From a virus, in the IMG/VR virus record IMGVR_UViG_3300028534_000016, positions 92,152-138,469 of that record: a DNA stretch of 46,318 nt. One strand, written 5' to 3'. The translations under genes were made by a program, and so were the position numbers. Of this stretch, positions 1,208-19,957 are shown in pieces. The notes beneath the pieces were generated by a model, which was not told the origin of the DNA, did not search any database, and saw nothing but the letters and a program-made list of their open reading frames with translations. The stretch's first letter is position 1; every line of letters begins with the position of its first letter.

Positions 1208-3391
1208 ATGAGTTTATTCGTAAACGCAAGTCCACAAGTTATTAATCTTGGTGTTCATGATTTATCTACAAGAGTAGTTACTCCTGAGCCTATTGAGATT
1301 CCGCAACATTTACCTAAAGCATACTTCTATGCTAGAAAAGGTACAACAATTCCTACGCCTAACGTTGGCGCTCCAATGTTATTGATGTATGGAACAGAAA
1401 CATTTGATAAAGATAGCAAATATTACAACCATTCAACTAGATTTATTACTGGTTTTGCTGGTGCAGCAAATACTATTATGTTACAACGTGTGATTCCTGA
1501 TGACGCTAACCCTGAATCTAATATAACTATCTACTTAGATGTATTAGCTACAGATGTCCCTAACTATTTAAGAAATAGTGATGGTTCGTATGTTATTGAT
1601 CCTGCTACAAATGATTATGCTGTAGATGCAGACAATCCTACTATTCCTGGATATAAATATAAGATTATCGAAGAAGTACAAGTAGGCACTGAAGTAGGTG
1701 AAGCATTTATTCGTAACGGTATGACTATCGGTGCTGCTAGAACTAAATCAGGAACTATGTCTGATGCTGATGGAAACAGATCTATTATGTATCCAATTGT
1801 TGATTTAAAAGCAAAATATAAAGGCGAGTTTTATAATAATATAGGTATCGCTATTGGTAGTATGTCTGATGATGAAGTACAAAGAGATATTATCGAAGCT
1901 ACTAAATCATTACCTTATAAATTAGCACTTGTTGAAAGAGAAGATACTGATAGTAAGTATGTTGTTAAACCATCACTTTATGGCGAACCAAATGTACAGT
2001 TCACATTTAAAGAAGGCGCAATTAATCCTCTTACTAAAGCTAGATTTGATTTAGAAACAGTTTTCTTACAAAACTGGTATAATGAAACAGATCCACTTCT
2101 TCCGTTAGAATATGAGGATTATGAAAAATTATATGTTTATACGAATTATTTAGATAGAGTTTTAACAATGCTAATCGAAAAAGAAGCACCTCATATTACT
2201 AATGATCCTGAAGTATGGAATGACGGTAATGATGCTGCTACTTCTTCATGGTTTGATTTCTTAACAGCAGATGCTGACCTTACTGCTGAAGAAAGATATA
2301 TCTTTAACTTCTTAACTGGTAAATCTACAAAAGGTGTTAACTTCTTTACATTTGTTAGAAGTGATGATACTCCTAATACAACTCCTGAACAACAAGAGAT
2401 TACTATGTCATTAACTACACCAGTATTCCTTAAAGGTGGTTCTGATGGTAGTTTAACTAGTGATATGTTCAATACTCTTGTTGAAAGAGAACTAGCTAAG
2501 TATCTAGACACAGATAGTGAAGTTATGGATAATGCAATCAACGTTGAATCAGTAATGTATGATTCTGGATTCCCTTTAAACACTAAAGAAGAAATTTGTA
2601 ACTTTATCGCTGTACGTAAAGATACTGCTGTAGCATTATCTACGCATGATGCTTCTCTCGGAGAATCATTCTTACCACTTTCTGATGAAAGAGCTATTGC
2701 GGTAGCACTTAAAAACAGATTAAAATTAACACCTGAATCTGATTACTTCGGAACAAGTGTCGCTAGAGGTATTGTTGTTGCTGGTACCGGTCTGCTTGCA
2801 GATAATACTACGAGAGATAGAATTCCGTTACTATATTCAATTGCTATTAAATCAGCTAAGTTTATGGGTGCAGGTAATGGTAAATGGAATGGTGTATATG
2901 CATTCGATAGAGCGCCAGGTAACATTATTACTGAATTGGTAGATATTGAACCATCATTTATTCCTGCTGGTATTAAACCAACACTATGGAATGACGGAAT
3001 TGTATGGGCACAACCATATGATAGAAGACAATACCATTTCCCTGCTATCCAAACAGTATATGATGATGATACATCAGTACTTAATAGCTGGTTTACAGTT
3101 ATTGCGGTATGTACTGTTACTAAGATTGCTGATAATGCTTGGAGAAACTTTACTGGAGCAACAGACCTTACTGAAGCACAATTATCAGATGCTATCGTAG
3201 CATATGTTAATAAAGCAACTAAAAATATCTTTGATGGTAGAATTGTTGTAGTTCCAGAAGTAGTATTTACAGAAGCAGATAAAGAACGTGGTTATAGTTG
3301 GAAGCTTATAAATAAATTATACGCAAATAACATGAGAAGTGTTATGGTTTATGAAACTGCTGTTTATAGAATGTCAGATTTAGAACAGTAA
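1208..3391 (+). CDS. Tail sheath protein (phiKZ gp29-like)
   Basis: 727 aa, AAAGGA RBS. Motifs NASPQVINLG.HDLS, IPQHLP, GGSDG, YDSGF, PESDYFGT, FPAIQTVYDDDTSVL, YANNM. Followed by the tube gene. Confidence 0.9.
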   Translation: MSLFVNASPQVINLGVHDLSTRVVTPEPIEIPQHLPKAYFYARKGTTIPTPNVGAPMLLMYGTETFDKDSKYYNHSTRFITGFAGAANTIMLQRVIPDDANPESNITIYLDVLATDVPNYLRNSDGSYVIDPATNDYAVDADNPTIPGYKYKIIEEVQVGTEVGEAFIRNGMTIGAARTKSGTMSDADGNRSIMYPIVDLKAKYKGEFYNNIGIAIGSMSDDEVQRDIIEATKSLPYKLALVEREDTDSKYVVKPSLYGEPNVQFTFKEGAINPLTKARFDLETVFLQNWYNETDPLLPLEYEDYEKLYVYTNYLDRVLTMLIEKEAPHITNDPEVWNDGNDAATSSWFDFLTADADLTAEERYIFNFLTGKSTKGVNFFTFVRSDDTPNTTPEQQEITMSLTTPVFLKGGSDGSLTSDMFNTLVERELAKYLDTDSEVMDNAINVESVMYDSGFPLNTKEEICNFIAVRKDTAVALSTHDASLGESFLPLSDERAIAVALKNRLKLTPESDYFGTSVARGIVVAGTGLLADNTTRDRIPLLYSIAIKSAKFMGAGNGKWNGVYAFDRAPGNIITELVDIEPSFIPAGIKPTLWNDGIVWAQPYDRRQYHFPAIQTVYDDDTSVLNSWFTVIAVCTVTKIADNAWRNFTGATDLTEAQLSDAIVAYVNKATKNIFDGRIVVVPEVVFTEADKERGYSWKLINKLYANNMRSVMVYETAVYRMSDLEQ

Positions 3392-3489
3392 CAACACACA
3401 ACACACTATTAGATTCTGTAGAATCTAATAAATAAGGTATACCCAATGGGTATACTGTTTAACAAAAAATATTATATAAAGGAATTCAA

Positions 3490-4362
3490 ATGGCTACAAT
3501 TGCTGATGCTATTTTAAACAAAGAAGAAGTCTATGCTGGTCATTCACCAGCCCTTAACTTACGTTATGGCGGACAAAACGGATACTTTGCTAAGATTGGT
3601 AGAGTTGGTCCTGATGGTAAAAACGTTGAAGAATGGATCTCTAACCAAGCTTACGTACAACGTAATATCATTCCTGTGGTATTAAGAGCACCTAAGTTTC
3701 TTAACTACATGCCTGAACCACAAAAATGGATTGATACATATAAAGCACTTATCGAGCTACACCCATTAACTATTACTGGTTTAACTTCTGGTCTTACAGT
3801 TGAGACTGATGAACACGCTATTGGTGGTGCTGGTGAGATGCAAGAAGAGATTACTGATGTAAAAAGAGCACGCTCTACAGTCAGTACTACATATAAAGAG
3901 AAAGCTGGTAAAGCTATTATCAAATTCCTAGATTATCTTATTAGATATGGTATGATGGATCCTGATACTAAGAAACCTTTAGTAGCTAACTTTATGGAAA
4001 ACATCGAAGATATTGGTGGTATGTATACTGCTGACTTCTATACTGGTACAGTATTGTTTATCGAACCAGACGTTACACAGAAAATTGTTGTTGATGCTTG
4101 GTTAACTACTAACTTCTTCCCTAAATCAAATGGTGAAAGAACTGGTAAACGTGATATTCATAGTGCCGGTGAAGCTCCTGAACTAAGTATCGAATGGGCT
4201 GGTATCACTATGAATAATGAAGCTGTTATGAATATGGCAGATACTATCCTACAGAACTTAACTGTTATTAACACTCTTCCGGATGTCGGCATGGTGACAC
4301 CTCAGTCAGAAATTGACCCAAATGTTGCAGCCAGTGAAAATGTTGGCTATAATGAACATTAA
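3490..4362 (+). CDS. Tail tube protein (phiKZ gp30-like)
   Basis: 290 aa after the sheath. Motifs YGGQNG, WISNQAYVQRN, GGAGEMQE, MMDPDTK, LFIEPD, NFFPKS.G. Confidence 0.88.
   Translation: MATIADAILNKEEVYAGHSPALNLRYGGQNGYFAKIGRVGPDGKNVEEWISNQAYVQRNIIPVVLRAPKFLNYMPEPQKWIDTYKALIELHPLTITGLTSGLTVETDEHAIGGAGEMQEEITDVKRARSTVSTTYKEKAGKAIIKFLDYLIRYGMMDPDTKKPLVANFMENIEDIGGMYTADFYTGTVLFIEPDVTQKIVVDAWLTTNFFPKSNGERTGKRDIHSAGEAPELSIEWAGITMNNEAVMNMADTILQNLTVINTLPDVGMVTPQSEIDPNVAASENVGYNEH
4288..4334 (+). repeat. 47-bp direct repeat, copy 1 (inside the 3' end of the tail tube gene)
   Basis: GGCATGGTGACACCTCAGTCAGAAATTGACCCAAATGTTGCAGCCAG, identical to 6015-6061. Confidence 0.97.
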
Positions 4363-4368
4363 GCATAA

Positions 4369-4400
4369 GTTACACTATATCCTAGTGGATATAGTGTAAC
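4369..4400. terminator. Bidirectional hairpin terminator
   Basis: GTTACACTATATCC-TAGT-GGATATAGTGTAAC, 14-bp stem between the convergent tube and endonuclease genes. Confidence 0.75.
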
Positions 4401-5980
4401 TATATAAATTTTTTATAATTATGTATTGTAGTATTACCTGGTAAATTAAGATCTCTACACATATCAAGAAAAGTTTTATAATATGTCCCCTTAACATTAA
4501 ATTTATAAAAACGTTTAATTTGTTTTTCAAGATATTCTTCTAGTATATTGTATTTAATGTATGGTATGCGTATTAAATGTATATTATTAAATGTAGCTAA
4601 TGTATTTTTTTCTTTATCTCTTTTTCTTGTTTTTTTAAATTCGTCCTTACCGCCAAAAAATGATCTTGGTTTGAAATGTTGGATACCGTCATACTCTATA
4701 AGTATATTGAGTTCTGGTAAATAGAAATCATATCTATAGTTATAACCAGGTATTTTATATTCACGAATATGCGATATGTTGTGTTTTTTTAGATATTTTA
4801 ATATTTTTTCTTCTCCTTTAGAAATACTACATTGCGAACAACCATTTCCAGTTAGATGGCTAGTAGCTGTTTGTTCAAAGTCGCCATGTTTAGGACAAGT
4901 TATAACTACTATATTTTTACTCAATGTATACATTGTTTTATTGTAGTCGTATTTATTTCCGTGTATTTTTCTGGCTTTCTCTATAAACTGATCCGTAGAT
5001 AAGGTATTTTTAATTATAGCGCATTTTAAACAGTTTCCGCGAATATGACTATTTGGTGTTTGTTTGAATTCTCCGTGTATCGGACAAATGATAGTAACTG
5101 GTATTTTGCTATTAATATAATTAACTTTACTATAATCGTACATACTGCCATGTACTTTTTTAGAGGCAGTAATAAATTTTTTCATATTTATATATCGTTC
5201 GTTATCTCTATAACATCGCATACAGCCGATGTTTGATAAATGTATTCTTGGTAATTGTTCGAAGTCGCCATGTACCGGACAGGTTATACGTATTGGAGTA
5301 TTGCTTCCCATATATTTTACATTGTCATACTTATATTTATTACCGTGTACATTTTTAGCTTTCTCTATAAATTGTTCAGTAGTGAATGTTCTTTTCATAA
5401 CACTACATTTATAACAACCACTACTTGTTAAATGTTCACTTGGTATTTGTTCAAAATCACCATGAACTGGACATGTTATAGTTATTTTTGTTCGCATATT
5501 TATGTATTTAGTTTTACTATAACTATATTTATCTCCGTGAGCTTTTCTAGATTTCTGTACGAATTCTTCTTTCGTAGTTCTTTTCGTATCGGCGACCGAT
5601 ATTCTTCCGCATATAATACATCCGCGACCACTTAAATGATCGTTAGGTGTTTGTTCAAAAACTCCGTGCTTTTTACAAATTATCTTTAATGGTATTCTAC
5701 TAAGCACGTATTCGGATAAAGAATAATCATATTTATCGCCGTGTATTTGTTCGGCTTTCTTTATGAATTGATTTGTAGTCACTCGGTCATTATTAATTCT
5801 GCATTCATTACACGCACTCCCTGCTAAATGTCTATTGACTCGTTTTTTATATTCGCCGTGCATCGGGCATATTATTGTTATATCCTTATTCTTATATACT
5901 CTGTCTGTTGATGGTTGTATGTATTTATATTTATTATTATACATCTTATTAGCAATATTTAAAAAATCTTTAAAATTCAA
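4400..5980 (-). CDS. Free-standing putative homing endonuclease: six zinc-binding repeats (DUF723-like) plus C-terminal Vsr/DUF559-like nuclease
   Basis: TTG start with AAGGA. Six CxxHG...H...CxxC units (CPMHG, CKKHG, CPVHG, CPVHG, CPIHG, CPKHG). C-terminal SKGE...YRYDFYLP..NILIEYDG.QHF...RDKEKN...LIRI. Confidence 0.82.
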   Translation of the reverse strand: MNFKDFLNIANKMYNNKYKYIQPSTDRVYKNKDITIICPMHGEYKKRVNRHLAGSACNECRINNDRVTTNQFIKKAEQIHGDKYDYSLSEYVLSRIPLKIICKKHGVFEQTPNDHLSGRGCIICGRISVADTKRTTKEEFVQKSRKAHGDKYSYSKTKYINMRTKITITCPVHGDFEQIPSEHLTSSGCYKCSVMKRTFTTEQFIEKAKNVHGNKYKYDNVKYMGSNTPIRITCPVHGDFEQLPRIHLSNIGCMRCYRDNERYINMKKFITASKKVHGSMYDYSKVNYINSKIPVTIICPIHGEFKQTPNSHIRGNCLKCAIIKNTLSTDQFIEKARKIHGNKYDYNKTMYTLSKNIVVITCPKHGDFEQTATSHLTGNGCSQCSISKGEEKILKYLKKHNISHIREYKIPGYNYRYDFYLPELNILIEYDGIQHFKPRSFFGGKDEFKKTRKRDKEKNTLATFNNIHLIRIPYIKYNILEEYLEKQIKRFYKFNVKGTYYKTFLDMCRDLNLPGNTTIHNYKKFI

Positions 5981-6014
5981 AAATTCATCCTTTAGTCGAT
6001 ATAATCAATTAAAT

Positions 6015-6089
6015 GGCATGGTGACACCTCAGTCAGAAATTGACCCAAATGTTGCAGCCAGCAATTCAGGGTATAACGAACAAGCTTAA
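6015..6089 (+). pseudogene. Second copy of the tail tube 3' end (47-bp repeat copy 2 plus variant C-terminus)
   Basis: Reads GMVTPQSEIDPNVAASNSGYNEQA*, versus GMVTPQSEIDPNVAASENVGYNEH* in the intact gene. Confidence 0.85.
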
Positions 6090-6110
6090 GTAAAAAAAAA
6101 ATAGATAATA

Positions 6111-6144
6111 TATACTACCTAGTCTTATAAGACTAGGTAGTATA
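6111..6144. terminator. Perfect 34-bp palindrome, probable terminator
   Basis: TATACTACCTAGTCTTA/TAAGACTAGGTAGTATA, with an A-run on the left that reads as a U-tract on the minus strand. Confidence 0.75.
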
Positions 6145-6219
6145 GTTACTATTATTTTAGGATATGGATATAGCAATAACACTCAGCTATTGTGTTAATA
6201 CTATGTTAGGTTAGGTATG

Positions 6220-6325
6220 TGCTCTAGGTTGGAGTTGAACCAACTAAATACCTCGTTACAATCATAATGTATTCTACAGTGATACACTATGAATTCACTC
6301 AGTCTATCCGATTTTCATCTAGAGC
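6220..6325 (-). ncRNA. Atypical tRNA-like RNA (class II-like, 12-nt anticodon loop, no encoded CCA)
   Basis: Minus strand: acceptor GCTCTAG/CTAGAGC+A, T-arm GTTGG-TTCAACT-CCAAC, D-loop-like AATCGGATAGAC, stem AGTGA/TCACT, variable arm AATAC/GTATT. Confidence 0.6.
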
Positions 6326-6332
6326 ATAGATT

Positions 6333-6435
6333 GTAGTCAGGACATTGGTTAGCGCACCTATCCTGTGCTGTCCTGACTACTAAATATATAACCTAGATAT
6401 TGGTTAGCGCACCTATCCTGTGCTGTCTAGGTTAT
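6333..6435. ncRNA. Two tandem hairpins with an identical 24-nt loop and different 12-bp stems
   Basis: GTAGTCAGGACA-[TTGGTTAGCGCACCTATCCTGTGC]-TGTCCTGACTAC (6333-6380) and ATAACCTAGATA-[same loop]-TGTCTAGGTTAT (6388-6435). Confidence 0.65.
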
Positions 6436-6439
6436 GATA

Positions 6440-6745
6440 ATAATTCGGTTTTCGAATACCAGACATACTACAGCGAGATCTACAAGCAAGAATATGCACG
6501 GTATCAATATAGTGTATTCAGATTGACTCGCTACGCCAACCCCGCTTACCCATAAAATCAAGGGCAGCTGCTCATAGTCGCCTATGAGATTTGTTCACTC
6601 GATTCGCTTGAATCTACTAAAGGAACACGACAAAACTTATATGTATAAGGTCGTAAACGGGACTAGGATATCTCCAACAATACAACGCATCCCGTGACGC
6701 AGTATTTTACAGACATATCCTGAAGCGCATGCAGCACTAAAAGTT
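6440..6745 (-). ncRNA. Putative ~300-nt structured non-coding RNA of unknown family
   Basis: No ORF, higher GC than the flanks. Minus-strand helices: CTCATAG-GCGA-CTATGAG, GCGTC-ACGG-GATGC, AGGATAT/ATATCCT, ACGAC/GTCGT, GATTC/GAATC, TAGCGAG/CTCGCTG. Confidence 0.5.
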
Positions 6746-6763
6746 AAATTAACTTACCTACGC

Positions 6764-7186
6764 CTACGAAAGTAGTGTAGCAGTCATCTCTTTAGTAAGG
6801 TCTTGAATCTTAGACTTACTAACTTTAGTAAGCGGATCTTTAACTGTTACACCAAGAGTAGACTTAGTTACTTCAGTGCCATCAGCAGGCGATTTAAATG
6901 TTTGTGAGCGTTTAGCAACAACATTCACTTGTCCGCGTTTAGATACACCATATGGGTATTCTACAACTACTTTATCGATGTCTTTATCTTCAGACATGAT
7001 TTTAGTAGATTGTTCTGCAGCAGCTTTAGTAGCTTCTTCAATATAAGAATGTGCATGGTCGAACACTTCTTTAATTACTTTCTTAGAAAGTTCTGTACCT
7101 TCGTAGAATGCATTTTCATCGTTATACTTTACAGTAGCGATTCCTTCTGTTTTACTTACTTCAAATTTTCCAGCATCGATTGCCAT
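6764..7186 (-). CDS. Hypothetical protein (140 aa), probably early-expressed
   Basis: ATG with AAGGA RBS, uninterrupted ORF, downstream of an early-promoter-like motif. Confidence 0.8.
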   Translation of the reverse strand: MAIDAGKFEVSKTEGIATVKYNDENAFYEGTELSKKVIKEVFDHAHSYIEEATKAAAEQSTKIMSEDKDIDKVVVEYPYGVSKRGQVNVVAKRSQTFKSPADGTEVTKSTLGVTVKDPLTKVSKSKIQDLTKEMTATLLS

Positions 7187-7279
7187 TGTTGTTTCCTTGT
7201 TCTTTTTTTATAATGTTAATACCATATAGGTACACCTCATATACTAATGCATTAGCACACCTTCGATTTCATGTATGCT

Positions 7280-7392
7280 GACCATAAGACACCCGCAGTC
7301 TTAACAGGAGTAACCATTTGGGATAAAGGTTATTTAAGAATACGTCGAAACACCAGTAACAGTTCATTTGTATCAAGCAGGTGTCTATGGTC
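7280..7392 (-). ncRNA. Structured leader or small RNA closed by a long terminal stem
   Basis: Minus-strand GACCATA-GACACCTGC pairs with GCGGGTGTCTTATGGTC (one bulge, one G-U). A second hairpin AGCATAC/GTGTGCT follows. Confidence 0.55.
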
Positions 7393-7398
7393 TACTTA

Positions 7399-7410
7399 AA
7401 TAATATATGT
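7399..7410 (-). promoter_or_regulatory. Candidate early promoter ACATATATTATT
   Basis: Identical 12-mer at 42937-42948. Resembles the phiKZ early motif TATATTAC. Confidence 0.45.
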
Positions 7411-7476
7411 TTAAATTTTTTTAAGAATCACTATTTCTGATATCTTAATTGATATTAAAAAATATAAGGAGATATC

Positions 7477-8703
7477 ATGGCTATCGTTGAGAGCGCTATA
7501 GATGTAGGCACCATATCTACATTAACAAGTTTGGATTTAAGCAGGGTATCAGAAGAAGGTACAGTTAATACAGACACAACTAAGAAGATAGTTACTAATA
7601 AAGATGGTTCTGTAAGAGTAGAGGCATTAGCACCAAAAATAACAAATGATTTAAAAACACTAGGTACTGCAAATGCTATAAATACTAATGATATTAGTAA
7701 TGTAGACAATAGTATTTTTTCAGATATTAAAGTACCTGAACCAAGCATAGGTGATAAACTAATAGGTTTATTTACTCCTAGTACAGATTGTAATACTAAA
7801 GCACCTAGTAAGTATAGATCAACATATAGTAAAAGCAGCAATAATAGAAGTTTAAAGAAAGTTAATCACAATTGTGACCAATACGGTAATCCAGTAACAG
7901 ATGTTATTGTTGGACTAAAAGATTACTCTGCTAAAGAAGATATATTAAATGCTTTTAACGAACCAAAAGTAGATAGCGCTATATCAGATACACTTAAAAC
8001 TTCCTTTAAAGATATTAATAGTTATACTGACCCTAGTAAAGTAGTTTCTGCCACAAAGTCTAACCTATTAAAATTAACACAACAAGGTGGGAGTACACTT
8101 AAAGCAAAAAGCATACTTAATGATGCGCTAACTTTATGTAAGAGTAAAAATAGTCTTAACTTAAATACTAGTAGTTTATTTGATTTATCATATATTAAAT
8201 CTTTATTAGAAAATATTGCTTGTGATTTAGATAATGCTTTACATAATGTGTTAGTATCGGTTATTGGTATTGACCCCACACAAAGCACATCAGCATTACA
8301 AGCAGTAACTAGTATACTCGGCGATAGCAATAATAAAAGCGTTATAGGTAATTTAGGTGTAATACAAGAATTACGAGCAGATGTAGGTGGGGCAAAAGCT
8401 ACTGCTATTACAAAAACTAAATTTAGTAGTATTTTAAAGGGAATAGATAGAGATGAATCTAAGACTGCTAATGCTACAGAAACTAATGATGTTATTTTAA
8501 CTAGTTTAGACACCATAGACCCTACTTGGGATAGAGATGAATTAGGTAATGTTAACTACTTTAAACTTAACGGTAACGATAAAGTATGTAGTACTTCACA
8601 AACAGCATTATTAGATAATTATGGAACAACTCCTTCAGATGGAACTGTTACCGTACAATTAGATAGAACACAAAGCATATCAGTAATGAGTGCATTCGCA
8701 TAA
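7477..8703 (+). CDS. Hypothetical protein, possibly virion/baseplate-associated
   Basis: 408 aa, AAGGAG RBS, LDTIDPTW motif near the C-terminus, located among structural genes. Confidence 0.55.
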   Translation: MAIVESAIDVGTISTLTSLDLSRVSEEGTVNTDTTKKIVTNKDGSVRVEALAPKITNDLKTLGTANAINTNDISNVDNSIFSDIKVPEPSIGDKLIGLFTPSTDCNTKAPSKYRSTYSKSSNNRSLKKVNHNCDQYGNPVTDVIVGLKDYSAKEDILNAFNEPKVDSAISDTLKTSFKDINSYTDPSKVVSATKSNLLKLTQQGGSTLKAKSILNDALTLCKSKNSLNLNTSSLFDLSYIKSLLENIACDLDNALHNVLVSVIGIDPTQSTSALQAVTSILGDSNNKSVIGNLGVIQELRADVGGAKATAITKTKFSSILKGIDRDESKTANATETNDVILTSLDTIDPTWDRDELGNVNYFKLNGNDKVCSTSQTALLDNYGTTPSDGTVTVQLDRTQSISVMSAFA

Positions 8704-8736
8704 CATAGTAACTAGCATTAGCTAGTTACTATGTTA
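8701..8736. terminator. Bidirectional hairpin terminator
   Basis: TAACATAGTAACTAGC-ATTA-GCTAGTTACTATGTTA, 16-bp stem starting at the stop codon, between convergent genes. Confidence 0.78.
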
Positions 8737-8740
8737 TATA

Positions 8741-10864
8741 TTATTTGTTCAGAATTGATGCTTGTGACACGAATCCACCTAAAACGCCATTTAAAGCGTT
8801 TCCTGTCCTCAATCCCCATGAGGATGGTGAAATGGCTTGCTCGTATGACATAAGTGCTCTAGAGAGCTTTAATTTAACTCTAGGAAGGGCATATTTGGAA
8901 TCCAGTAATGAACGAGCAGCTATAACTGAAATATAATTACCTAACGGAGTATCATCATATAACGGGACATTGAATATTTCGTCAAATATAGATGTATTAA
9001 CAGGTGCCGACATAATGTTGCTGAAGTCGGTTACGGTAAATGATACATCTATAGCTAGTGCTTTTCTGTCATTATTAAATCCTAAATTGGAAGTACCTCT
9101 TGTAATGGTTAAATTAGTTATCATTCCTAATTTAATCTTCTGTACACCTTTAGAAAATAAACTACAAAGATATGGTGATGTATAAGATGCTTTACCGGTA
9201 GCTAATGGTAAAGATCCTGCTAACAACATCGCTAATGGAATATAAATATTAGTCATTTGACTAATAGTATTACCATAAGGAGAAATAAGTTTCATTTTAT
9301 ATGTTACTTGCGGTAAACTAACACTGCTATCTTCCCAACGCTTAGGGACATCTATATATCCGCCACCTAATAACGTTTGTAATACATTACTCGCTCCATA
9401 AGTAACTGAATCTAATCCACCCATAATTAAATCTTTAACACCAGAAGCTATAGCTTGTGCTGCTTCCCCTACAATGTTACCGCCAGCTAAATTAAATTTA
9501 ACATCTTTTGATTTTTTACTTAAAGATTTTAATGTACTACCAGTATCTATTTCACCTACACTATTAGAAAACGATTCGGTAACACTACCAGTATATTCTA
9601 CTTCAAAAGCAGCATAAGCACCACCATCTCTTACAGCAGAATCAAAAGCATCTACATAACTTTTTAATTTACTTACTTTTTCTTTATCTTTACTAGTCAT
9701 AGGGTAAGTACCATCTGGTTGTTTACCTATTTCTTTTAAATCAACAACAACTGGATCTGGTTTACCACTAATATCATCTTGTGTAGTAGTTACAGTATCT
9801 TGTGCTGGTTCACTATAGTATTTGTTTTTAGTAACAACTTTATCTATATATTTGCTAAACATAAAAGTACTATTAATGCTATCACCGATACCAGAACCAC
9901 TAGCTTTATCTTCGCTTACAGTATATTTAGTTTTAATATATCCAGCAAAATCTAAATCTGTTTTTTGGTCATATATCTTTTTATCATATAGTGCTTGTTT
10001 ATTAGCCAATGCTTGAGCTTTAGTAGCTATGGCAAATACGTCAATATAATTATTATCCGTAATAATGCCAGGCATCATCTCTTTTAAGTTATTTAAATCA
10101 TCTTGATTTATTTGTACATTAACACCTATCTTGTTAGCTACAGTATTATCATTTGTGAATTCAGGAATAAGTAACCCTAATTCAGTAGCCATATGTGTTG
10201 TTATTGTGTTTACTGTAGCCCAATAGTTATGCATAGTCGGATCTAAATAATAATAATTAAAAGCACCATGTCCAGCTACTAATCCTGCTATAGTTTTAAT
10301 AGTCCAGATAGTAACTGTTATTAGTGGAAAAGCAGCTAACATAATTCCGGCACCTAAGAATTTACCTATGTTATACATATATGGTTTTCTACCAGTATTA
10401 GCTAAAACACTATCTTGATAATCTACTGCTCTAGTAAAGAAATCAAATAATGAGTTAAATTTAGCTATTCCAAATTCCATATATACTATTTGTTTATTAT
10501 CATCTAGCGATTCAGAATAGTATCTACCCATACCGTAGTTACCTGTTGTATCTTCAACTGTAACAGGAGGTAACCCTAATCTTCTACCAGGAATACGTAT
10601 ATCCGCGTATCTAGTATATTGTGGTCTATTATTTATGGCAATATTACCACCCAGTGAGCTATCTGTGAACTTAAAGTTAGCACTACTATAATATCTATTT
10701 ATTTTATCTACTTCGTCTAGATCGTTATCAGTTACCATGAACCTAACTTTGACCCAATCTTTATCTATAATTTTGATATCATTTAGCTTAGCTTTACTTT
10801 CGTCACTTCCTTTGTTTATGTTTGTACCAAATAAGTTACTTTTTGTAAAATCTATAATTGACAT
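8741..10864 (-). CDS. Conserved phiKZ-like virion structural protein (probably gp182-like, tail/baseplate)
   Basis: Start moved to ATG 10864 (AGGAG RBS). Motifs FTDSSLGGNIAIN..PQYTRYADIR, GMGRYYSE, L.SPYGN, ITRGTSNLGF. Confidence 0.7.
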   Translation of the reverse strand: MSIIDFTKSNLFGTNINKGSDESKAKLNDIKIIDKDWVKVRFMVTDNDLDEVDKINRYYSSANFKFTDSSLGGNIAINNRPQYTRYADIRIPGRRLGLPPVTVEDTTGNYGMGRYYSESLDDNKQIVYMEFGIAKFNSLFDFFTRAVDYQDSVLANTGRKPYMYNIGKFLGAGIMLAAFPLITVTIWTIKTIAGLVAGHGAFNYYYLDPTMHNYWATVNTITTHMATELGLLIPEFTNDNTVANKIGVNVQINQDDLNNLKEMMPGIITDNNYIDVFAIATKAQALANKQALYDKKIYDQKTDLDFAGYIKTKYTVSEDKASGSGIGDSINSTFMFSKYIDKVVTKNKYYSEPAQDTVTTTQDDISGKPDPVVVDLKEIGKQPDGTYPMTSKDKEKVSKLKSYVDAFDSAVRDGGAYAAFEVEYTGSVTESFSNSVGEIDTGSTLKSLSKKSKDVKFNLAGGNIVGEAAQAIASGVKDLIMGGLDSVTYGASNVLQTLLGGGYIDVPKRWEDSSVSLPQVTYKMKLISPYGNTISQMTNIYIPLAMLLAGSLPLATGKASYTSPYLCSLFSKGVQKIKLGMITNLTITRGTSNLGFNNDRKALAIDVSFTVTDFSNIMSAPVNTSIFDEIFNVPLYDDTPLGNYISVIAARSLLDSKYALPRVKLKLSRALMSYEQAISPSSWGLRTGNALNGVLGGFVSQASILNK

Positions 10865-10904
10865 GTTGTCTCCTAGTATAATCAATGAAAAAAGAATTAT
10901 AGTA

Positions 10905-10934
10905 TAACTATACTAGGAATTCCTAGTATAGTTA
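10905..10934. terminator. Perfect 30-bp palindrome overlapping the protease stop codon
   Basis: TAACTATACTAGGAA/TTCCTAGTATAGTTA. Confidence 0.72.
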
Positions 10935-11687
10935 CCATTGTTCGATTACGTCGCTATTATTATCATTACAGTTAATGATAAGTTCTTTAACCATTTCTCT
11001 TTCTGTATTAGATTCAAGACTACAAGCAAAACATTCATCTACTTCATCACCGTCAGCAATATCGTCTAAATCCATAACAATAGAGTCCATAGATTCAATA
11101 CTTAACTCTTTCCACTTAGTAGCGTATTTAATACCTGGTTCGTTAACATAATCATATGTGATAAGTTGCACTATTTTCTTTATAACGATACCATTAACAA
11201 ATGTATTCTTTGTTAAACATCTAACCGAGAAAGCTACGTTTTCTTCAGGATTATCTAAAGCTTTTTGTAAGAAATCTCCTTTAGGTCCTGATGGTTTAAC
11301 CCATCCCTTAACAAGAATAACATTACCTTTACCAGGAACACCGCTATCTATATTGGATTCTTCTAGAACTAATTCTCTAATATGTACACATACATTTTCT
11401 TCATAGATTTTTAAATTTCTAGCTAAAAATTGGTCTCTAGTCATACCAGGTACAAACTTAGGATGACCAACTTCACCTCTTAATGCTCCAGTCTTTAATC
11501 TTCTCATAAGAGTAGAATTATTATCTGTAAACATATTTCTTACATCATCAGCAGTATAGAACTCACCAGCAGAGTTAATAACATTAAGAGCACCTAATGT
11601 TACAAAGTAATAACCTTTGTCATCTTTCTCTAAAGTTCTATTATCTGTTGTAGACTTAACAGTTGAAAAAACTATTTTATTTCCCAT
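10932..11687 (-). CDS. Prohead (head maturation) serine protease (phiKZ gp175-like)
   Basis: LRGEVGHP (His), AFSVR (Ser), TYDYVNEPGI, C-terminal SIE/SLE self-cleavage motifs. Synteny with the vRNAP cluster. Confidence 0.88.
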   Translation of the reverse strand: MGNKIVFSTVKSTTDNRTLEKDDKGYYFVTLGALNVINSAGEFYTADDVRNMFTDNNSTLMRRLKTGALRGEVGHPKFVPGMTRDQFLARNLKIYEENVCVHIRELVLEESNIDSGVPGKGNVILVKGWVKPSGPKGDFLQKALDNPEENVAFSVRCLTKNTFVNGIVIKKIVQLITYDYVNEPGIKYATKWKELSIESMDSIVMDLDDIADGDEVDECFACSLESNTEREMVKELIINCNDNNSDVIEQW

Positions 11688-11695
11688 ATTTTATC

Positions 11696-12427
11696 CTATG
11701 CACGAAGTATCTCTTCGATTTTTGTAGTATCTTTTTCTTTATTCACGATAGCACTAATGACACCTTTACTGTAATAACTACCAGTAAGTTTACTAACAGT
11801 ATTATCAAAAGTATAAAATAAGTTAAGTAACCCGACATATTCAGGATGTACTTCTTTAAGTACTTTTTTATCTTTAAGTAACTCACGATATAATTTACTT
11901 TTGTCATTAGGATTCTTGGCAACAATACTTGCGAGTATTTCTGTTACTATAGGGTTGTCTCCTAAATTACTATTAGCATATTTATCAGTTTGTTTAAAGA
12001 TATCGATAATATCGTCATATTCCATAAACCACGGAATCTTACCGTTAATATAAAATTCGTTAAATAAATCAAACAAGAATTTGTTATTAACTACCATTTT
12101 GTTATTGTTGGTAAAATTAGTTCCTTCTGGAAATTCTAAAACTTTATTAACAACACCATTAACTTCGATAAATTTAATATTGCTAGGAGTCAATTCCATA
12201 AAGATAGGTAAGTTACTTACAGCATAGTTACCATCATCATCTAGTACGGCATAAATATTAACTATCCTAACAGGATTACCCAAGATAGCTAATTTTTTAC
12301 TTTCATAAGATTCTGGGTAAATTACTCGTAAGTTTTTATTAACTACTATAGTGTCACCTATAGTAGTCATTGCTTGTTTTATTTTGTTCGCGTCTCTTTT
12401 GAGTTTTTTAGGATCTAATATATCCAT
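11696..12427 (-). CDS. Conserved virion protein (phiKZ gp176-like, possibly vRNAP-associated)
   Basis: 243 aa next to the protease. Motifs GKIPWFM.Y.D, KLTGSY, IEEILRA. Confidence 0.65.
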   Translation of the reverse strand: MDILDPKKLKRDANKIKQAMTTIGDTIVVNKNLRVIYPESYESKKLAILGNPVRIVNIYAVLDDDGNYAVSNLPIFMELTPSNIKFIEVNGVVNKVLEFPEGTNFTNNNKMVVNNKFLFDLFNEFYINGKIPWFMEYDDIIDIFKQTDKYANSNLGDNPIVTEILASIVAKNPNDKSKLYRELLKDKKVLKEVHPEYVGLLNLFYTFDNTVSKLTGSYYSKGVISAIVNKEKDTTKIEEILRA

Positions 12428-18700: not shown

Positions 18701-19957
18701 CGTAATGTTCGATATGTATCGCTACTACACATCCGTGGTCTTACCACTGCTCTAGCTTTCACTAGAGACCAGACTATATCTTCACCCACTATATACATAG
18801 CTAGGGTGTCTACCATTTCGATTTAAGGGATTCTCACCCACCTGCTTAGGCCCTACTCCTGTTGCTCTATTATTTATTGTTGGTGAGCCAAGGGATAGTC
18901 GTTGAACACATACCATACTGTAGTTACAGGTTAGATACTTCGCTGCGTCGGTTGCCCAATCTCTATAGGTTTTTACTATGCTCCTTACCACTATTACGGC
19001 CGGAGTATTACAGTCTATTTCTAGCTGTAAGTAGTACTATAGAGCTCTAAGGGGTTTCCCGCAATTAGATAGATATTGACATACATTACTGTATGAAAGA
19101 TCACATGTTATTTATAAATCAAATATTGCTTAACATCTTTTGGTTTAATATTACCTGGTAAATGTTCACCTTTACACAATTCTAAGAAATTACGATACCA
19201 CTTATTATTAACACAATATTTAAAATATCTTGATATTCTGAATAACAAATATTTTTTAATATTATTAATTTCCGTATACTTAATACGTATAAGCTTATAT
19301 CCTTTTTCTTTAGCTATCTTATTTTTTGTTTTATCGCGTTTTTGAATATTTAATAATTCTTTTTCTCCGCCCCACGCAGTCACTGGTTCAAAATGTTGTC
19401 TACCATCATACTCTATGAGTATGTTAAGATCAGGTAAATAGAAATCATATCTAAATTTAGTATTGCTATCAGGAATATTATACTCTCGTTTAAAAGATAT
19501 ATTTAAATCATTAAGTAGTTTAGCTATTTTTAATTCACCTTTAGATAGTTTGCATATAGGACAACCAGTTTTATTTGCAATATGGTTATTGGGCTTAACT
19601 TTAAAATCTCCATGTATAGGACAAGTAATTATTACTTTATTTTTAGAACCAGTATAGTTAATATTATTGTAATCATACTTATTCTTGTGTTTATTTTTAG
19701 CTTTTTTAATAAATATTTCTTTTTTTAATAACATATAGCATTTTAAACATCCTTTATTAAGGTGTGTTTTAGCAATTTGTTTAAACATACCGTGTACTGG
19801 ACATAATATATCTATTTTTTCTTTATAATGATCTAAATTTTTATCATTATTAATGAAATATTTATATTTATTATTGTGTATTTTATTTGCAATATTTATA
19901 AATTTATAACCTAACATAATGTACTTCTTGATTTAATTTCAATAAAGCACAAAATTT
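18701..19957 (-). mobile_element. Group I intron (1257 nt) with homing endonuclease ORF in the P1 loop
   Basis: 5' exon ends in U, intron ends in G. Core elements AATTGCGGGAA, GACGCAGCG, GTTCAACGACTA, AAGATATAGTCT. Guide GATCTTT (19096-19102) pairs with exon GGAGATT with a U-G at the splice site. Confidence 0.92.
19108..19917 (-). CDS. Intron-encoded homing endonuclease (two zinc repeats plus Vsr/DUF559-like nuclease)
   Basis: CPVHG and CPIHG repeats, SKGE...FRYDFYLP..NILIEYDG.QHF...RDKTKN. Paralogous to 4400-5980. Confidence 0.85.
   Translation of the reverse strand: MLGYKFINIANKIHNNKYKYFINNDKNLDHYKEKIDILCPVHGMFKQIAKTHLNKGCLKCYMLLKKEIFIKKAKNKHKNKYDYNNINYTGSKNKVIITCPIHGDFKVKPNNHIANKTGCPICKLSKGELKIAKLLNDLNISFKREYNIPDSNTKFRYDFYLPDLNILIEYDGRQHFEPVTAWGGEKELLNIQKRDKTKNKIAKEKGYKLIRIKYTEINNIKKYLLFRISRYFKYCVNNKWYRNFLELCKGEHLPGNIKPKDVKQYLIYK

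Follow-up and report, generated by a model that had tools for sequence, protein, structure and literature searches.

The locus lies in a window of 46,318 nucleotides, the whole stretch of DNA that was analysed, which is part of a 138-kb contig from an uncultured phiKZ-like jumbo phage; all coordinates are positions within the window. A tail sheath gene precedes a tail tube gene, an order conserved in relatives, and the tube gene is followed by a free-standing homing endonuclease gene (HEG) on the opposite strand, enclosed by two exact copies of a 47-nt direct repeat (R). The features are the following:

1208..3391, plus strand: tail sheath gene, a 727-aa ORF upstream of the tube gene (PF20961 phiKZ_gp29PR, E 1e-25)
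3490..4362, plus strand: tail tube gene, 290 aa (PF23806 Phage_TTP_14, E 8e-76), ending ...AASENVGYNEH and stop
4227..4287, plus strand: left part of a divergent tract within the tube coding sequence, co-conversion-like
4288..4334, plus strand: R1, first exact 47-bp repeat copy, tube codons G267-S282
4335..4362, plus strand: end A, the expressed substitute tube C-terminus, ENVGYNEH and stop
4368..4401, no strand assigned: hairpin A, an inverted repeat with a 15-bp stem (100% complementary) and a 4-nt loop, which came with the cassette
4400..5980, minus strand: HEG, 526 aa (PHROG 559, 681, 9084; PF05265 DUF723)
4403..4828, minus strand: Vsr-like/EDxHD-type nuclease domain, aa 385-526 (AF2 model, pLDDT 90.5)
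4829..5941, minus strand: predicted DNA-binding array of six Zn-ribbon repeats of about 64 aa, aa 14-384
5981..6014, minus strand: HEG leader, carrying the AAAGGA Shine-Dalgarno, unique sequence linking the HEG to R2
6015..6061, plus strand: R2, second exact 47-bp repeat copy
6062..6089, plus strand: end B, the stranded tube C-terminus, NSGYNEQA and stop, in frame with R2
6090..6144, no strand assigned: A-run and hairpin B, forming the terminator module that follows the tube gene in the lineage of the window and its close relative L012

The two repeat copies are spaced by 1727 nt, with 1680 bp between them, and R has no further occurrence in the whole 138-kb contig; by arithmetic, one 47-mer repeat is expected by chance in 46 kb at about 1e-19. 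R2 runs on in the tube reading frame into NSGYNEQA and its stop codon, an end that is not expressed as part of the tube. Ends A and B are homologous yet diverged, with a 3-nt indel between them. The anatomy described in an earlier note on this DNA, with one tube end, a hairpin and an antisense gene between exact repeats, and a second tube end with its own hairpin beyond them, is confirmed, the second hairpin being the usual one of the window/L012 lineage. The tail tube gene is now a hybrid of a resident body and a substitute 3' end. That the element "invades an essential gene", as the same note put it, is overstated, as 24 tube codons are duplicated and only the last 8 are replaced, in a C-terminal tail that is variable across the family and of low confidence in the monomer model. 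The tube protein retains the family's invariant G286 and the GYNE motif, and no longer proteins fusing a tube to an endonuclease were found.

Hairpin A (dG -23.9 kcal/mol, z -6.4) closes the tube transcript and lies directly against the HEG stop codon. A T6 run is found 8 nt beyond it, and because of this offset the hairpin was missing from the consensus terminator scan. L012 has no equivalent of hairpin A, nor does the rest of the genome, and a genome-wide search found no further copies of either hairpin, R, the leader or end A. Hairpin B (6111-6144; dG -27.1 kcal/mol) is terminator-like on both strands in the terminator scan. Followed by U10, it makes a strong terminator on the minus strand, and the HEG lies on the downstream side of it. 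A sigma-70 scan gave fewer matches than shuffled sequence and no convincing promoter for the HEG; the HEG start codon is TTG, with the Shine-Dalgarno 7 nt upstream. The cassette has a GC content of 20-33%, compared to 37-39% in the tube gene. Between the repeats, the endonuclease is the only ORF with a family match, short ORFs overlapping it having been left out of the family search, and the cassette holds no integrase-like ORF, as had been claimed, and no transposase or terminal inverted repeats.

Regarding the encoded enzyme, the three PHROG families that it matches are annotated as endonuclease/homing endonuclease. Its N-terminal array has six intact C-x2-H...C-x2-C ligand sets, falling into two repeat families, with matches to DUF723, DUF4379 and Zn_ribbon, whereas NUMOD gave no match. 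For phage HEGs, Zn-finger arrays of this class are the predicted means of binding DNA (PMC10448857). The whole protein sequence returned only noise against the PDB and NCBIfam, while the model of the nuclease domain has as its best Foldseek matches 3r3p_A/B, the catalytic domain of I-Bth0305I (TM 0.74 on target), followed by the Vsr structures 1cw0 and 1vsr, with a probability of 1.00. The nuclease profile also matches 3r3p at E 0.01 with the E/D/H/D motif residues aligned, placing E on E, D418 on the mutated D196A and D455 on D222, and the D-to-H spacing of 17 residues is the same as in I-Bth0305I. Among 34 homologues, E390 is nearly invariant and D418, E429, H435 and D455 are invariant. As judged from the model and these alignments, the HEG encodes an intact enzyme of homing-endonuclease fold, with its catalytic residues and Zn ligands complete.

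The HEG family is found in 1053 phage records, multi-copy and patchy, at up to 14 places per genome, with three copies in the window's genome; the nearest homologue has approximately 45% identity. In Klebsiella phage YX3973, considered as a possible second example, the feature table places the HEG between the portal and head-morphogenesis genes.

The empty site predicted in a relative is present in L012, where the tube gene is followed by a hairpin of similar type and by the same non-coding stretch of about 610 nt and the same 140-aa gene as in the window, with no cassette. Among the 94 tube loci scanned, none of the other relatives carries the cassette, although gene order is conserved, and distant relatives likewise lack it; HEG occupancy at this one locus therefore differs among otherwise syntenic relatives. 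The L012 tube ends ...EASATGYNEQQA, so the exact empty allele that had been expected, ...AASNSGYNEQA, was not found there, nor was it or an excised allele found in the public collections searched, and at 90% clustering the tube protein of the window groups with that of L012 alone. GenBank phages contain no near-identical DNA, and searches of IMG/VR and JGI metagenome contigs with exact and degenerate patterns, for R and for end A, gave 0 matches and thus no donor lineage. The layout of stop codon, A-run and hairpin is common to relatives. Among them, gene content varies at the junction following the tube gene, which is a general hot spot of such change. The genes following the tube in L101, L102 and L104 were tested as other nucleases and are not nucleases.

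The comparison with L012 reveals a patch of different ancestry around the insertion. The tube body (3490-4226) is 91.0% identical at the nucleotide level, and the final 135 nt fall to 77% and then 60%. The segment 4227-4287 has 77.0% identity (Fisher p 0.0016 against the tube body), with 43% of its third codon positions different compared to 20% (p 0.027), while the protein is nearly unchanged. R1 has 59.6% identity, with 73% of third positions different and synonymous sites in R near saturation. End B closely matches the L012 end (...GYNEQQA and stop) from about 6067 on, and hairpin B and everything downstream are orthologous to L012, with 94% identity in the hairpin and 90% further downstream; the two differences in hairpin B (6123 and 6132) form a compensatory pair. 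In total, about 110-140 bp hugging the cassette, both repeat copies included, have 60-77% identity to L012 against 90-91% in the flanks. As far as the sequence allows, this divergent patch looks like a co-conversion tract, but, since there is only one close relative, it is not polarisable, and the replacement could instead have taken place in L012. In its (E/N)VGYNE motif, end A is closer to the L007/L009 clade than to L012, whereas end B resembles L012, in segments of only 28 nt.

Taken together, these features make it likely that the 1727-bp unit, which sits among the last tail-tube codons, is a cassette built around a free-standing HEG and spreading by homing with gene-end replacement. The idea of an intron-less endonuclease cassette at the tube 3' end, supplying an in-frame substitute end and hairpin, is thereby supported, and the tube protein remains complete because the cassette carries end A in frame with its own hairpin. 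During co-infection, the HEG enzyme would cut cassette-free tube alleles near the insertion site, and the break would be repaired from the cassette-bearing genome, the tube body providing homology on the left and R2, end B and hairpin B on the right; along with the cassette, some 100 bp of neighbouring tube sequence would be co-converted. The duplication itself may have arisen once, when the HEG 5' flank was joined to the tube 3' end illegitimately or by template switching, and the perfect identity of the 47-bp copies would reflect a recent origin or gene conversion between them. The same identity would let a single crossover remove the cassette precisely, after which a functional tube gene would carry end B; arithmetic and reading frame agree with the proposal that such a crossover would remove 1727 bp and yield a 290-aa tube ending ...AASNSGYNEQA. 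Since no closely related HEG lies at any tube gene, homing to this locus is deduced from a single site that is filled and many that are empty.

The self-immunity expected of such an element is more difficult to accommodate. The filled genome retains the junctions of tube with R1 and of R2 with end B contiguous, and every target of less than 49 bp is still whole there; disruption would require a recognition site of at least 49 bp spanning all of R. A cleavage-resistant replacement end, as first suggested, would thus be too simple an account, and the predicted self-immunity would be unexplained unless the site is at least 49 bp or the target is a diverged allele. The real target may be a diverged allele, since both repeat copies lie in the tract of foreign ancestry relative to L012.

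A candidate target is offered by the conserved coding block for P-D-(I/V)-D-M at the left edge of the duplication, which is a perfect palindrome in L012 (ATATCGATAT), while the expressed copy in the window has three substitutions that break it (ATGTCGGCAT). It is a rather improbable proposal that this palindrome is the HEG target, the filled genome being doubly immune, with a stranded copy under the HEG start and a 17-nt filler at the palindrome centre. The alignment of 5958-6001 with L012 tube codons upstream of R' (28/44, p about 0.03) gives a weak hint that a tube relic may extend under the HEG start. If the proposal were true, the L012 palindrome would suit a dimeric Vsr-like nuclease, the filler would be a fossil repair scar, the HEG translation start and ribosome-binding site would have been built from orphaned tube codons, and the perfect 47-bp repeats would be a scar-free exit restoring a functional gene.

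The strongest competitor to homing with gene-end replacement is a one-off scar, in which the HEG homes elsewhere, to intergenic sites, and illegitimate recombination dropped it here together with a foreign tube piece, with no tube targeting and no role for the duplication. Its uniqueness among the loci scanned and its position at a hot spot fit such an event, as does the fact that the remaining two family members in the genome, like the one in L007, are plain intergenic insertions without flanking duplications. We nevertheless consider it unlikely, because the insert begins exactly in frame at the homologous tube-end position, indicating homology-guided and not random joining, the tract of different ancestry lies on both sides, as predicted by homing with co-conversion, and the enzyme is fully intact.

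Far less credible is a target-site duplication, in which a transposition-like insertion with nicks staggered by 47 bp was filled in to leave the flanking repeats. Exact direct repeats around an insert are the hallmark of staggered-cut insertion, and Vsr is itself a nicking enzyme (PMC3239194). However, this process does not predict that the insert starts with the homologous, in-frame and diverged next tube codons (end A against end B), and transposase, integrase and terminal inverted repeats are all lacking from the cassette. To our knowledge, a 47-nt stagger also has no precedent. It is likewise very improbable that the locus is a host-beneficial switch, toggling two alternative functional tube C-termini by repeat recombination with the HEG as hitch-hiker: both ends keep the family G-Y-N-E motif and an open frame, and excision would be precise, but it would be irreversible within a genome, the highly variable C-terminal tail gives no sign of two maintained types across the family, and no relative has two ends.

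The contig is metagenomic, and the exact repeat is short enough to mislead small-k assemblers, which could have stitched a strain with end A and the HEG to a strain with end B through the shared 47-mer, an artefact that the earlier note had itself raised. This is the least probable of these readings and already largely refuted: an independent contig (L013, ENA ERZ27262685, MEGAHIT k141) is collinear with window positions 1351-12000 at 99.991% identity, both repeats included, and an artefact is very unlikely because k = 141 exceeds the 47-bp repeat and the junction of HEG leader and R2 (between 6014 and 6015) is unique sequence, which must be present in the reads and cannot be made by stitching via the repeat. 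A group I intron is rejected, as no intron RNA family was found (Rfam, 4000-7600, E<=1), the tube frame stops at 4362 and the HEG is antisense, an arrangement that also leaves no in-frame intein around it.

Free-standing homing endonucleases are thought to require an intron, an intein or an intergenic niche, thus sparing their phage. Homing with gene-end replacement would represent a fourth route in a phage, that of carrying a spare gene end, and at this locus the occupied site can be seen alongside its empty counterpart in a close relative and a putative recombination tract flanking the insertion. It predicts that structural-gene termini of jumbo phages are swapped between lineages as a by-product of homing, and it is a warning for annotation, as short orphan gene ends beside endonuclease genes may be footprints and not noise. 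In addition, a DUF723 Zn-ribbon array is combined here with a Vsr-like nuclease, and the cassette provides defined substrates for studying target choice and self-immunity in a very common and uncharacterised phage nuclease family.

The HEGs of T4 occupy the spaces between genes or divide a gene into two functional parts, and are not known to leave a duplicated gene end. By analogy with the "intronless homing" of T4-like free-standing HEGs, such as SegB, SegF, SegG, MobE and Hef (PMC2330249, PMC2790892), the cassette probably spreads in co-infection, as it shares with them a free-standing HEG beside an important gene, a patchy distribution and, beside the insertion, a tract whose apparently different ancestry would fit co-conversion. 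It differs in its insertion inside the coding 3' end, rescued by the carried replacement end.

Concerning the nuclease, the EDxHD/Vsr-like homing endonucleases I-Bth0305I and T-even Hef (PMC3239194) have in common with the HEG the nuclease fold, the composite E, D, H and D residues and a multidomain organization with an N-terminal DNA-binding region, and they also occur in phages and can be free-standing. I-Bth0305I, however, is intron-encoded and has NUMOD/HTH modules, while the HEG has six DUF723-type Zn ribbons and approximately 17% identity to 3r3p; this Zn-ribbon module has been described so far mainly with T5orf172 nucleases (PMC10448857). Another homing endonuclease of a phiKZ-like phage is gp210 of the nucleus-forming jumbo phage PhiPA3, an enzyme whose reading frame lies in a group I intron of an RNA polymerase gene, and which acts on an essential gene of co-infecting relatives and shows that such enzymes can matter in phage competition (PMC11620839). 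The cassette HEG, in contrast, has no intron, belongs to another nuclease family and has a putative target.

No published phage description of an endonuclease layout that replaces a gene end was found; the layout is known from fungal mitochondria, as the mORF "gene hybrids" in atp6 of Allomyces macrogynus, atp6, atp9, cox2 and nad3 of Glomus sp., atp9 of Rhizopus oryzae and cox2 of Mortierella (PMC3630166). In both cases an endonuclease ORF lies in the 3' part of a protein gene with no intron or intein, an in-frame, diverged substitute C-terminus is expressed while a second copy is stranded behind the endonuclease gene, and relatives have the uninterrupted gene. The differences are the phage host and the structural gene, the Vsr-like/EDxHD nuclease with its Zn-ribbon array instead of LAGLIDADG or GIY-YIG, and the orientation, since mORFs are on the same strand and often in phase with the host gene, whereas the phage HEG is antisense with a hairpin between. 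Moreover, only 8 codons are replaced here, and the copies of the duplicated segment show no divergence over their first 47 bp. The locus thereby connects the intronless homing of phages with the mORF gene hybrids of mitochondria.

The tail tube gene of this phiKZ-like jumbo phage has two 3' ends, one of them brought by a 1727-bp unit, the cassette, consisting of end A, hairpin A, an antisense homing endonuclease gene, its leader and one copy of a 47-bp repeat. The earlier note had read the locus as an intron-less endonuclease cassette that duplicates and replaces the tube C-terminus; as to what the feature is, this was essentially right, the feature being real and every listed element lying where it had been placed:

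Directly upstream of the tube gene, plus strand: sheath gene (PF20961)
3490-4362, plus strand: tail tube ORF, 290 aa, phiKZ-type (PF23806, E 8e-76), directly 3' of the sheath gene
4288-4334, plus strand: R1, first copy of the exact 47-nt direct repeat, in frame within the tube ORF
After R1 to the stop (4362), plus strand: end A, where the tube frame reads ENVGYNEH, then stop
4368-4401: hairpin A, perfect 15-bp stem, dG -23.9 kcal/mol, z -6.4
4400-5980, minus strand: endonuclease ORF, 526 aa, TTG start, AAAGGA 7 nt upstream of the start
Between the endonuclease ORF and R2, minus strand: leader, 34 nt
6015-6061, plus strand: R2, second exact copy, 1727 nt from R1
After R2, plus strand: end B, which reads NSGYNEQA in the frame of R2, then a stop codon and an A-run
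6111-6144, both strands: hairpin B, terminator-like on both strands in the scan

In a search of the whole 138-kb contig, the 47-nt repeat occurs only as R1 and R2, and the cassette is AT-richer than the tube gene (GC 20-33% vs 37-39%). A stitching artefact is very unlikely as the source of this structure, because the window belongs to an IMG/VR contig and a second, separate ENA assembly of the same phage (L013, ERZ27262685) was made with MEGAHIT at k141, exceeding the repeat length, the junction of leader and R2 is unique sequence, and L013 is collinear through both repeats (99.991% identity over 10,650 bp).

Regarding the empty site, the 90% cluster of the tube protein has only one other member, on L012, a contig from a close relative. 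Its order is sheath, tube (291 aa), A-run, a hairpin of the same type, about 610 nt of non-coding DNA and the same antisense 140-aa gene, with no endonuclease gene and a single tube end at this locus. An empty allele ending in NSGYNEQA had been predicted but was not observed, that of L012 ending in ATGYNEQQA. Hairpin B differs from its L012 counterpart at just two positions, 6123 and 6132 (L012 about 8913-8922), which together make a compensatory T-A to A-T swap and so speak for selection on the hairpin as a structure; given this match, the module behind end B is the usual tube terminator of the window/L012 lineage. Among more distant relatives, the cassette is absent from seven contigs (L005, L007, L009 and L101-L104) and from 80 IMG/VR loci; in a scan of 94 tube-bearing loci, a second tube end or a member of this endonuclease family next to the tube gene turned up in L013 alone.

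An ORF-free, GC-richer stretch of about 610 nt (6150-6763, GC 40-43%) separates hairpin B from the antisense 140-aa gene; it is outside the cassette, since the empty allele has it too. It is 84-99% conserved in L012 and absent in more distant relatives, which have a gap of about 100 bp instead. Two near-identical hairpins lie in tandem within it (6326-6387 and 6390-6440). The stretch has MFE z-scores of -3.4 (plus strand) and -4.6 (minus strand), is single-copy in the genome and matches no Rfam family or tRNA, being a candidate structured RNA island.

The ancestry around the insertion was compared by aligning the window, minus the 1727 bp, to L012:

Tube body: 91.0% identity, third codon positions 20% different
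60 nt before R1: 77.0% identity (p 0.0016), third codon positions 43% different
Repeat segment (R): 59.6% identity (p 4e-8), third codon positions 73% different
End B: 68% identity, most differences within its first 10 nt
Hairpin B: 94% identity
Next 1 kb after hairpin B: 90% identity

As judged from these alignments, about 110-140 bp hugging the cassette, both repeat copies included, has a history different from its flanks. Relaxed constraint alone is an insufficient cause, given that synonymous sites in the R region are near saturation although the protein is partly conserved. Co-conversion during homing would leave such a divergent patch; as the comparison rests on a single close relative, either the window or L012 may have changed. 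Comparing the end A and end B sides, identity drops sharply from 47/47 to about 60% at 4334|4335, a break that marks a crossover or gene-conversion end point. In addition, end B is similar to L012, and the (E/N)VGYNE motif of end A to the L007/L009 clade; between segments this short, such similarities are suggestive only. Elsewhere in the tube gene, otherwise 91% identical to L012, a 20-nt patch at 3997-4016 has eight differences (protein ENIEDIGG in the window vs KSIDDVNG in L012) and is a small variable loop or else a second micro-mosaic.

The endonuclease has six repeats of about 64 aa (residues 14-384), each with an intact C-x2-H...C-x2-C ligand set and a match to DUF723, DUF4379 or Zn-ribbon models; together they form the N-terminal part. 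Such Zn-ribbon arrays are predicted to be what phage homing endonucleases bind DNA with (PMC10448857). For the last 142 residues, a 34-sequence alignment yielded a confident model (pLDDT 90.5), whose best structural matches are the catalytic domain of I-Bth0305I (3r3p) and E. coli Vsr (1cw0, 1vsr); the domain profile also matches 3r3p (E 0.01), the alignment pairing the motif residues E, D and D. Homologues conserve E390, D418, E429, H435 and D455, which make up the composite motif characteristic of the EDxHD family (PMC3239194). The enzyme is an intact nuclease of homing-endonuclease fold, and its family carries the labels endonuclease or homing endonuclease in PHROGs 559, 681 and 9084. The family is very large (at least 7992 proteins and 1053 phage records), and a genome often has several copies; no donor can be named, because even the nearest homologue shares only about 45% identity. 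The genome has two more copies (19108-19917 and G000:C1:13470-14694, both minus strand), which combine Zn-ribbon and Vsr-like parts, one having 269 aa and the other, which may be frameshifted, two adjacent or overlapping reading frames; neither has a duplicated gene end in its flanks. In L007, another insertion of the family, a 230-aa DUF723 protein gene (10965-11657), lies between a 722-aa gene and a Peptidase_S80 gene, free-standing and with no duplication alongside, and is missing from the syntenic L009.

The 3' edge of the tube gene is a forgiving landing place, because the last 25 or so residues of the family vary in length and sequence except for a G-(Y/F)-N motif, kept by both ends, residues 260-290 have low confidence in the monomer model, and gene content at the junction behind the tube gene differs among relatives. 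This junction is a hot spot of gene-content change. Differing extra genes occur there at L101 3946-5043, L102 3877-5233, L103 3959-6459 and L104 3904-4215, including a phiKZ internal-head-protein-like 365-aa gene, a dNK-type kinase and small ORFs.

During co-infection, the enzyme would cut cassette-free tube alleles, and break repair would copy the cassette, with homology supplied on the left by the tube body and on the right by R2, end B and hairpin B. The duplication probably had a single origin, in which the 5' flank of the endonuclease gene was joined illegitimately, by end-joining or template switch, to a tube 3' end. As a speculative lead, a weak alignment links the 44 nt left of R2 to L012 tube codons (28/44, p about 0.03, given a 17-nt filler at the position of the palindrome described next). 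In L012, the conserved PD(I/V)DM block (PDIDM there) holds a perfect 10-bp palindrome at 8795-8804 (window 4281-4290), ATATCGATAT. Its position coincides exactly with the left edge of the segment that the window has in duplicate, and the window's expressed copy reads ATGTCGGCAT there; the palindrome is a possible, speculative nuclease target. The filled genome keeps tube|R1 and R2|end B each as contiguous sequence, and insertion destroys only recognition sites spanning all of R, i.e., 49 bp or more. I-Bth0305I has a footprint of about 60 bp, of which mainly a central 14-bp pseudopalindrome is read (PMC3239194). The diverged patch as a whole is a more likely basis for any immunity of the filled genome than end A alone, which the earlier note took to be probably cleavage-resistant.

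No published phage example of this layout was found in the literature searched, whose coverage is incomplete. To our knowledge, the free-standing Seg, Mob and Hef endonucleases of T4-like phages carry no replacement gene ends. The cassette likely spreads in the manner of these enzymes (PMC2330249, PMC2790892). Architecturally, mitochondrial mORF gene hybrids come closest, as in Allomyces (atp6) and Glomus (atp6, atp9, cox2 and nad3), in which the endonuclease ORF supplies a C-terminus of foreign origin and the native one is left stranded (PMC3630166). Unlike those hybrids, the cassette resides in a phage, encodes a Vsr-like nuclease in an antisense ORF with its own hairpin, replaces a very short segment, and has identical copies over the first 47 bp of the duplicated segment.
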